Assembly: GCA_016432325.1 (NCBI GenBank)
Contig: CP066684.1
Location: 160,001 to 224,000, forward strand
Reading direction: 5' to 3'
DNA: 64,000 nucleotides
DNA from: Candidatus Aenigmatarchaeota archaeon
GTDB lineage: Archaea; Aenigmatarchaeota; Aenigmatarchaeia; PWEA01; JACQIF01
Position 1 is the first letter of the stretch; each line of letters opens with the position of its first letter. The notes under the pieces were generated by a model that saw only the letters and a program-made list of their open reading frames with translations, was not told the DNA's origin and made no database searches. Below, piece by piece: positions 18,689 to 54,121 of the stretch. The position numbers were made by a program, and so were the translations under genes.

Positions 18689-18706
18689 ATGAAACTGCGG
18701 TTTCAT
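18689..18706 (+). repeat. dispersed palindrome TGAAACTGCGGTTTCA, copy 1
   Basis: Identical 16-mer at 54104-54119; sits inside a longer hairpin GTAAAT...ATTTAC. Confidence 0.75.
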
Positions 18707-30591: not shown

Positions 30592-30700
30592 TGGAGCGGG
30601 GGTTGGGAATTGCACCCAAGTAGATCCGCTTTCCGGCATGTCGGAAAATCGCGTTTCCGCACGCCTGCAGGCGGACGCATAGCTGCTCTGCCACCCCCGC
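30592..30700 (-). tRNA. tRNA-Cys(GCA) with 34-nt intron at 37/38 (30631-30664); encoded CCA
   Basis: Acceptor GCGGGGG/CCCCCGC, U73, anticodon stem TCCGC/GCGGA, T stem TTGGG/CCCAA; 75 nt after intron removal. Confidence 0.92.
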
Positions 30701-30701
30701 G

Positions 30702-32177
30702 TCACTTGATGAAACGCCACCTCGGGCCTTCCGACGTATCTTGGACTTCAATTCCGTACTGGTCCAAGAGCCTCTTCCGCAGCTCGTCCGCGGCCGTGAA
30801 GTCCTTCTGCTTCCTCATCTCTTCCCTCTGTTCGATAAGCTTCTTAACCTCGGCGGGTAGAGGGCGTTCCTCTTTTCTGAGTACGGCAAGGACACTGTCA
30901 AAGTCGTGCATTGTGTCGAGTACTCGCTGCGCGTCGCGGGAAGCCATCGCCTTCGTTTCGAGCAGCTTGTTGATGGAACCCACGAAGTGATGCAGAGATG
31001 CCCACATCTCCGGCACGTTAAGGTCATCGTCCATCGTGCGCTCGAACTCTTTGCGCACCTCGGCGACCAGCTTGCGTACGGCTGTACTGCTCTTCCCGTT
31101 CTTGTGACGTGCGAGCCGATCCATGAACTCGTCGAGCTTGTCGAGCGTGTTCGCGGCGTTCTTCAGCGACTCCCAGCTGAAAAGCTGCTGCGTGCGATAG
31201 TGCGCGGTCAGGTAAAAAAACCTCAGCTGGCGCGGCGTGAACGTTTCGTCGATAACGCTCTGCAACCGCAGGAAGTTCCCTTTGGATTTTGCCATCTTCA
31301 AAGGCCGGGCCTTTGAAGTTTCCGACCAATTGTCGGAAATTTTTGTGTCGCTCACGTTCAGGAATTCGCAGTGGAACCAGTACTTGGCGAAAGGACGGCC
31401 TGTGGCCGCCTCGCTCTGCGCGATTTCATTCGTGTGGTGTACGGGTATGTGGTCTATGCCTCCGGCATGTACGTCGAGCGTGCGTCCCAGATACTTCATT
31501 GCCATCGCAGAGCACTCGATGTGCCAGCCGGGGAATCCTCGGCCCCAGGGCGAGTCCCATTCCATGTGGCGTAGCGTGCCCGCAGGAGTGAGTTTCCACA
31601 GCGCGAAGTCCGTGGCGTTGCGCTTGCCTGCCGTGACCTCGACGCGCGCGCCTGCCTTCAATCCTTCGATGTTCAGGCGCGCCAGCTTCCCGTAATCCTT
31701 GAGCCTGGACGTATCAAAGTAGACTCCATCGCGTATCTTGTATGTGTAACCCTTGCGTTCGAGAGTTCTGACGAGAGTAATCTGTTCACTTATGTGGTCT
31801 GTCGCGCGGCACCAGATGTCAGGCATGAGTGCGCCCAGAAGCTCCAAGTCGTTCTTGAAGACCTTCTCGTAAAACGCAGCAATATCCCAGGCGCTCTTAT
31901 GCTCGCGCTGCTCGGCGACTACCATCTTGTCCTCTCCCTGATCGGCGTCATCGGTCAGGTGCCCGACGTCCGTGACGTTCGTGACGTGCTTGACGCGGAA
32001 GCCCTTCCATAGCAAGTAGCGCTTCAGAAGGTCTTCGTTGACGTACGTTCGTAAATTCCCTATGTGCGCGTAGTCGTAGACCGTCGGACCGCACGTGTAC
32101 ATGCGCACGGTCTTCCCCTTCAACGGTTTGAAAATCTCTTTCTTGCGGGAGAGCGTGTTGTAAATCTTGAAAGCCAT
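30702..32177 (-). CDS. cysS: cysteine-tRNA ligase
   Basis: CGPTVY, HIGN, DFALWK, PGWHIECS, HHTNE, KMAKS. Confidence 0.96.
   Translation of the reverse strand: MAFKIYNTLSRKKEIFKPLKGKTVRMYTCGPTVYDYAHIGNLRTYVNEDLLKRYLLWKGFRVKHVTNVTDVGHLTDDADQGEDKMVVAEQREHKSAWDIAAFYEKVFKNDLELLGALMPDIWCRATDHISEQITLVRTLERKGYTYKIRDGVYFDTSRLKDYGKLARLNIEGLKAGARVEVTAGKRNATDFALWKLTPAGTLRHMEWDSPWGRGFPGWHIECSAMAMKYLGRTLDVHAGGIDHIPVHHTNEIAQSEAATGRPFAKYWFHCEFLNVSDTKISDNWSETSKARPLKMAKSKGNFLRLQSVIDETFTPRQLRFFYLTAHYRTQQLFSWESLKNAANTLDKLDEFMDRLARHKNGKSSTAVRKLVAEVRKEFERTMDDDLNVPEMWASLHHFVGSINKLLETKAMASRDAQRVLDTMHDFDSVLAVLRKEERPLPAEVKKLIEQREEMRKQKDFTAADELRKRLLDQYGIEVQDTSEGPRWRFIK
31296..31343 (-). repeat. 45-nt in-frame double-hairpin insertion within cysS
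   Basis: Stems TTTCCGAC/GTCGGAAA (31319-31339) and CTTCAAAGGC/GCCTTTGAAG (31296-31318); 15 extra codons before KMAKS. Confidence 0.75.
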
Positions 32178-44220: not shown

Positions 44221-44404
44221 GGGGCCATAGGATAACCCGGCAGTCCTGCCGGCTCCAGTTGGCGCAACTGGCGCGCTGAGTCTCCGGACGATGACAAGGA
44301 AGATACCGGCTAGTCCCGGTTCAAACCGGGCTTTCTTTAAAAAGAAAGCACGGGTGCAAAGAAACTCCGCTTTCCAGCACATGAGAATCCGGGTGGCCCC
44401 ACCA
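44221..44404 (+). tRNA. tRNA-Trp(CCA) with introns at 37/38 (44259-44304) and 59/60 (44326-44387)
   Basis: Acceptor GGGGCCA/TGGCCCC+ACCA, anticodon stem GCCGG/CCGGC, T stem CCCGG/CCGGG; 76 nt after removing 46+62 nt. Confidence 0.9.
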
Positions 44405-51185: not shown

Positions 51186-51466
51186 GCGGCGATAGTCTAG
51201 TGGTTTCCGCGGCAGCTTCATGGCGTACACCGCCCCGCGGAAATTGTAGGACCTTAGCCTTCCATGGCGCCTTTTTGAGCACGTCCGCTCAAAAACCCGC
51301 GGGAATGCACGGAACAAAGTTCCGGCACATCGGGAGCACACTCCCGAATAAAATCCGCTGGCGCACGATGAAAGCTAATGACCCGGGTTCGAACAAGTGG
51401 CACGTGCGCGCGCCCCTTGAACCCCTACGACGTAGGCGTTTCATGAAAATCCCGGTCGCCGCACCA
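51186..51466 (+). tRNA. tRNA-Gly(TCC) with three introns: 20/21 (51205-51247), 37/38 (51265-51372), 59/60 (51394-51449)
   Basis: Acceptor GCGGCGA/TCGCCGC+ACCA, D stem GTCT/GGAC, anticodon stem TTAGC/GCTAA, T stem CCGGG/CCCGG; 74 nt after removal. Confidence 0.88.
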
Positions 51467-54101: not shown

Positions 54102-54121
54102 CCTGAAACTGCGGTTTCAGG
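54102..54121 (+). repeat. dispersed palindrome TGAAACTGCGGTTTCA, copy 2
   Basis: CCTGAAAC-TGCG-GTTTCAGG in the spacer before rpl39e. Confidence 0.75.

Follow-up and report, generated by a model that had tools for sequence, protein, structure and literature searches.

A double-hairpin element, probably translated, at the KMSKS motif of an archaeal cysteine-tRNA ligase

Main

The cysS gene of a groundwater archaeon carries, at its KMSKS motif, one copy of a non-autonomous, genus-specific double-hairpin element. We consider it very probable that this copy is translated and not spliced; most likely it is read through as a harmless loop of 15 residues. That the insert is a second archaeal mRNA intron is not supported.

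Results

The cysS gene and its insert

The window, the 64,000-nt stretch of DNA analysed here, lies on a single 875-kb contig of a genome that is ~90% complete. The source sequencing runs are groundwater metagenomes, and the splicing endonuclease of the genome has its nearest relatives in Candidatus Aenigmatarchaeota. The gene and its insert are laid out as follows.

30702–32177, minus strand: cysS, cysteine-tRNA ligase, 491 residues, intact open reading frame, the sole copy detected in the genome.
31295–31339, minus strand: the element, 45 nt with T...A ends, coding for residues 280–294, placed by a rule from six empty/filled site pairs and by restored ortholog spacing.
31319–31339, no strand assigned: hairpin 1, T-type module, perfect 8-bp stem and 5-nt loop, from folding.
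31296–31318, no strand assigned: hairpin 2, C-type module, perfect 10-bp stem and 3-nt loop, from folding.
31284–31298, minus strand: KMAKS (the KMSKS motif), residues 294–298, with Lys294 and the first base of Met295 derived from the element.

All invariant CysRS columns are retained. Since this is the only cysS found and a search of the genome for SepCysS found none, the cell very probably depends on the gene.

A first-pass annotation had described a palindromic, in-frame insert of 45 nt (15 residues) just before KMAKS. This description held: the insert is absent from 29 of 29 CysRS orthologs of the same order and class, and the ortholog alignment that had been proposed as a check gave a clean gap of 15 residues, with ortholog spacing restored when 45 nt were deleted. 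Across 85 CysRS sequences the spacer from W.H to KMSKS is 9 residues in 79 and 10 in 5, and reaches 24 only in the cysS studied here. A natural CysRS loop at this place, which the annotation had entered as a caveat, is rejected on that count, the other 84 sequences having a spacer of 9 or 10. Contigs in four DNA assemblies (four samples, one study) bridge the insertion site with zero differences, so the insert is not an assembly artefact.

The two perfect hairpins, of 8 bp and 10 bp, were likewise confirmed, with folding z-scores of −4.0 to −4.7. The proposed boundaries, 31297–31341, were wrong and move to those given above under the boundary rule from empty/filled pairs. With these limits the element sits between the A and the TG of the KMSKS methionine codon, and target duplication is absent. 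Its end reads Lys followed by an A, which rebuilds the Lys-Met of the motif; the Lys codon now standing before Met is provided by the outer arm of hairpin 2.

No cysS ortholog above ~59% identity was found in metagenomes or genomes and the congener assembly is without cysS, which leaves this gene with no empty counterpart to compare at the nucleotide level. Separately, the cysS genes of two relatives in the class (G029:C3:25421-25530 and G042:C11:345846-345955) have an in-frame insert of ~36 codons near residue 210–213, a different site from that of the 15-residue insert; this is a candidate mini-intein or another element.

A genome-wide family of double hairpins

The suggestion that the insert is a palindromic coding element was supported, and it extends to a genome-wide family of ~40 doublets in two genomes. 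Each consists of T, a C-type hairpin, a spacer of 0–3 nt, a T-type hairpin and A, for a total of 40–51 nt. A genome-wide scan for adjacent perfect hairpins returned 54 multi-hairpin clusters, against 0–3 in Markov nulls, and k-mers derived from the data recovered 195 family hairpins, where a shifted control gave 19. The 195 fall into 148 clusters. Called genes contain 26 of these clusters, a further 14 lie at the edges of genes and 108 lie outside, in a genome that is 90% coding DNA. Among the 108 outside genes, 31 lie within tRNA genes, 25 between divergent genes and 7 in a large non-coding block, taken as the rRNA region; only 5 of the non-tRNA intergenic clusters lie between convergent genes.

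Doublets of the C-type plus T-type kind, the subtype seen in cysS, number ~40 across this genome and its congener G001, which has a median protein identity of 59% and carries the family at other sites. None of 249 further genomes from the class contained the doublet pattern. In GTDB and IMG/VR it gave scattered single matches; of the matches that we checked, one was a double hairpin, and a doubtful one. Across the family the outer arms stay conserved, while the inner stem and loop vary in nearly every copy (71 distinct sequences in 76 hairpins); both stems are free of mismatches in 23 of 38 doublets. Copies occur in both orientations, in intergenic DNA, nested in long tRNA introns, and in frame in PolB, L5, L7Ae, ArgRS, Lhr and RpoE.

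The annotation had also linked the insert to the intron of the neighbouring tRNA-Cys gene through shared sequence. The shared 9-mer is real, but it is not special, as nine other family loci share 9–13 nt with the insert. We reject a particular tie to that intron; the closest copy is in the tail of rpoE.

Several other palindromes were seen in passing. Five near-identical doublets (G000 C1 13806, 273227, 370026, 448810 and 607609, in the genome studied here) all lie upstream of genes, several of them adjoining an AT-rich hairpin, and may reflect either a recent burst or a regulatory role. Single hairpins at window positions 18689–18706 and 54102–54121 belong to an abundant type (37 copies genome-wide) that often overlaps start codons and is either a family module or an operator. 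Genome G031 has one 21-nt palindrome in eight copies. Two genomes of one genus, G035 (13, against 2) and G053 (21, against 5), are enriched in the single-hairpin pattern and are without the doublet pattern.

Empty and filled sites

We took an element to start at the T before the C-type hairpin and to end at the last A after the T-type hairpin. With these bounds, the joined flanks of six copies recur verbatim elsewhere as 14-mers, where we estimate ~0.4 to be expected. One such pair is a module of tRNA D-loop introns, seen both empty and carrying the doublet; another is an abundant single hairpin with a doublet in its loop. The empty sites are loops or centres of other hairpins. As the six empty/filled pairs match exactly, insertion is precise, leaves no target duplication and is often into another palindrome. 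A 2-nt AT target duplication was considered and rejected, since left and right dinucleotides mismatch across copies and the empty sites are unduplicated. Flanks are heterogeneous, the commonest flanking 4-mer occurring in only 3–4 of 38 copies, and the element ends pair over only 1–2 bases.

Coding copies keep the reading frame

Eleven coding inserts measure 45, 48 or 51 nt, and removing them leaves an in-frame reading that equals the ortholog where aligned. The boundary rule gives these lengths in Lhr, L7Ae, RpoE, the congener PolB and others, while alignment set the limits of the inserts in L5, ArgRS and one phosphoesterase. PolB of the present genome (L196, G000) holds a related doublet of 54 nt. 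The PolB inserts of the two congeners (L196 in G000; L138:2998-3045 in G001) are independent, ~20 codons apart.

All 12 coding copies that were checked keep the frame. In ~450 comparisons with the congener and ~330 with the outgroup, based on gene calls from a dicodon caller and on partial ortholog coverage, we found no hairpin-linked stop or frameshift; further checks turned up neither a frame-breaking copy near a start codon nor an element separating two parts of a single gene. For one 44-nt copy, all start codons close by fit the reading frame solely when the copy is retained. Half of the non-coding copies are not a multiple of three in length and 17% of their frames contain a stop; were the element spliced, broken frames would thus be expected at roughly even odds. 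The argument rests on the absence of frame-breaking copies, because the length comparison under the strict boundary rule is not significant (a multiple of three in 6 of 7 coding and 16 of 31 non-coding copies; Fisher p = 0.11).

Coding copies still have perfect stems, a feature that neutral translation leaves unexplained. Residues encoded by the element resemble the displaced host residues more than planted controls do (11 inserts, p below 0.001), with an imperfect null in which loop composition is unmatched and nucleotide similarity is also slightly raised. The resemblance is clearest in L7Ae and is seen also in ArgRS, and it fits survival or tuning at the peptide level. The final five residues of the 48-nt L7Ae insert (L199:452-499) repeat the preceding five with different codons, which suggests selection on the peptide.

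Introns of the tRNA genes as a positive control

The tRNA genes, reconstructed by alignment, served as a positive control for splicing geometry. Most have long introns at D-loop, anticodon and T-loop sites, and of 43 T-loop introns compared at the fixed 59/60 register, 36 show 3 or 4 central pairs beside the T-stem. The neighbour of cysS gives a direct example.

30592–30700, minus strand: tRNA-Cys(GCA) gene, directly downstream of cysS.
30631–30664, minus strand: its 37/38 intron, 34 nt, with a hairpin of a related module inside; a real bulge-helix-bulge (BHB), used as a positive control.

This intron has a 5-bp exon helix, 3 of 4 central pairs and a 4-bp intron helix. Doublets in tRNA genes are nested inside the introns and do not form intron ends.

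EndA and RtcB are both encoded in the genome, EndA by only one gene that we found, of 201 residues. Introns at 59/60 with relaxed motifs are thought to need enzymes of the alpha-beta or epsilon type (PMC5829648), and the EndA here must be relaxed because 59/60 introns are handled.

The tRNA genes themselves commonly span 180–300 nt, with introns at several non-canonical sites (for example window 44221–44404, tRNA-Trp, and 51186–51466). T-loop introns reach ~145 nt and are built of nested hairpin modules; ARAGORN misses most such genes.

Explanations for the insert

The rival reading that bears most on function is an mRNA intron excised by EndA and RtcB, as in cbf5. Both enzymes are encoded, the widespread non-canonical tRNA introns imply a relaxed enzyme, the insert lies within the catalytic motif of a single-copy essential gene, and the same modules are found inside tRNA introns. 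The annotation had pointed to a 3-of-4 central helix at 31297–31341; this helix exists, but it has no flanking helix on either side, and no BHB, hBH or HBh' geometry was found in any register. Indeed, no register within 12 nt combines a central helix with a flanking helix of at least 2 bp. Forcing a central helix and bulges at cysS costs 12.6–16.6 kcal/mol (8–27 in the other coding copies), against a median of 2.8 kcal/mol (10–90%: 0.6–4.6) for T-loop introns, a high cost because the perfect hairpins occupy the bases needed. The sole two-step route costs 21 kcal/mol at its first step. A GAA end, proposed as a likeness to tRNA introns, does not carry over, since the GAA of T-loop introns pairs with the T-loop TTC that the cysS site lacks. 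Weak BHB-like matches turn up in the other coding copies about as often as in control doublets planted at random, all coding copies keep frame and occur in both orientations, and the nesting of tRNA doublets described above also speaks against them as introns. We regard an mRNA intron as very unlikely. The frame census, together with BHB energies set against the genome's own tRNA introns, provides a worked test of whether such an insert is a real intron.

Two further accounts leave the element unspliced. The hairpins could have formed in place, through template switching or inverted duplication of the host's own DNA, and be no mobile family at all; the nearly private inner stems and loops, the slight resemblance of insert ends to adjacent host DNA (5.5 of 15 nt, against 3.9 by chance) and the lack of a detected transposase would fit. 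Against this, ~40 loci in two species agree in outer arms, order of modules, length and T/A ends, a complete doublet is gained at a single point in the empty/filled pairs, and the cysS arms match flanking host DNA at only 3–4 of 15 nt; this origin seems slightly less probable still than an intron. Least likely of all is a cysS inactivated by the insert and now in decay. Insertion within KMSKS would fit, and LeuRS is sensitive to sequence at the linker here (PMC3643597), but the intact frame and full set of invariant columns, the status of cysS as sole copy with no SepCysS in the genome, and its identity in four samples of one study all oppose it.

A translated loop before KMSKS

For the favoured explanation, a translated copy of the double-hairpin element, the AlphaFold2 model of CysRS (mean pLDDT 89) places residues 281–289, with values below 50, between two intact strands. 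The inserted peptide is thus predicted to form a disordered loop between the pre-insert strand and the KMSKS strand. In LeuRS a whole domain is linked to KMSKS through a beta-ribbon (PMC3643597), and by analogy that linker may be the position equivalent to the cysS insert. In the translated protein the insert would then form a loop of 15 residues on the tip of the beta-ribbon that runs into KMSKS. We infer that this copy survived because its length is a multiple of three, it is free of stops and its end re-creates the Lys-Met of the motif.

More generally, copies accumulate where they are tolerated, that is, in intergenic DNA, in the interiors of tRNA introns and at stop-free, in-frame positions in proteins. 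In tRNA introns the element would be removed together with its host intron, and this removal would give it shelter.

How the element may move

Two routes of movement can be put forward. We favour insertion at the level of single-strand DNA through a trans-acting enzyme, because copies lie between divergent genes and in both orientations, and give it about an even chance. Capture of excised RNA hairpins by EndA and RtcB followed by reverse transcription is a clearly less likely alternative, kept in play by the element's connection with tRNA introns and by the absence of target duplication. In a fuller form of the RNA route, which we think somewhat more doubtful again, a mobile element is bred in tRNA introns, its hairpins are joined to RNAs by EndA and RtcB, and a passing reverse transcriptase writes them into DNA. 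This fuller form would explain precise, duplication-free insertion without a transposase and, if true, would mean that host enzymes can drive both the growth of introns and the gain of new protein loops.

Searches of the genome for a mobiliser (Y1 transposase, DDE_3, DDE_1, IS110, TnpB, Cas1 and reverse transcriptase) were negative; it does encode two tyrosine recombinases. RAYT (Y1, PF01797) was found in neither of two genomes with completeness of 90% and 73%. A single DDE_1 transposase and a single split reverse transcriptase occur in the congener, with no evident link to the elements; the latter (L301:1252-2377) is DGR-like, split over two overlapping frames and beside a rhomboid-like gene. 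A scan for a mobiliser among genus-shared proteins absent from the outgroup gave only a weak LAGLIDADG-like match. This 179-residue protein (L126:7447-7983) is present in both congeners, has no outgroup match and matches Pfam weakly (E 4e-4).

Comparison with known systems

A very short palindromic element has here landed in a catalytic signature motif and has probably been kept because its end rebuilds that motif. The system links protein invasion of the kind known from Rickettsia to extreme tRNA intron growth in a DPANN genus, and its exact empty and filled sites make the movement of short palindromes without a transposase testable. We found no paper on double-hairpin elements of DPANN in the open-access literature.

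Rickettsia palindromic elements (RPE) are stem-loops 105–146 bp long with terminal inverted repeats and a conserved peptide (PMC10969869, PMC2229807). They and the present element are lineage-specific palindromes of intergenic DNA, RNA genes and, in frame, conserved proteins, with no known mobiliser. The element here differs in its length of 40–51 nt, its two adjacent hairpins, its variable inner sequence without a conserved peptide and its shelter inside tRNA introns. Coding palindromic repeats are also described for Methanocaldococcus jannaschii (Suyama 2005, as cited in PMC2229807). Intragenic REP dimers of the GTAG and CGTC families are likewise hairpin units of ~20 nt arranged as adjacent heterodimers, some of them in frame in DNA polymerases, helicases and tRNA synthetases (PMC3733652). 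Unlike these, the element has neither the GTAG nor the CGTC tag, RAYT was not found, the host is archaeal and the non-tRNA clusters favour divergent over convergent gene pairs (25 against 5).

Haloquadratum SMR-A and PATEs (PMC3119063) share with it an archaeal host, lack of a transposase and lack of target duplication, and SMR-A, like the element here, inserts into palindromes of other elements. SMR-A, however, is ~110 bp with prominent terminal inverted repeats, whereas the ends here pair over 1–2 bases. PATE or IS200-IS605 derivatives, like the element here, have near-terminal palindromes and no target duplication, but PATEs are also marked by a conserved target oligonucleotide next to one end and by relatives in IS605, and we found neither feature here. 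From a classical MITE the element differs in being without terminal inverted repeats and target-site duplication.

The cbf5 pre-mRNA BHB intron of Crenarchaeota (PMC2738675) is of similar length (16–44 nt), structured, placed in a catalytic motif and free of target duplication. The cysS insert differs in having no BHB-like junction, in restoring rather than breaking the motif, and in being multi-copy and in both orientations. By the tests that apply to the cbf5 type, EndA and RtcB are present, but removal is unnecessary, the insert being stop-free, a multiple of three and able to re-create Lys-Met. Transposition of tRNA introns in Thermoproteales (Fujishima 2010, as summarised in PMC4090602) resembles the present case in that related introns occur among unrelated tRNA genes at non-canonical positions; going by that summary, the modules here differ in also colonising intergenic DNA and reading frames and in nesting in one another. 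Because a defining feature of each fails, we do not file the element with RPE, REP or SMR-A: it works like RPE or intragenic REP dimers and belongs to neither family.
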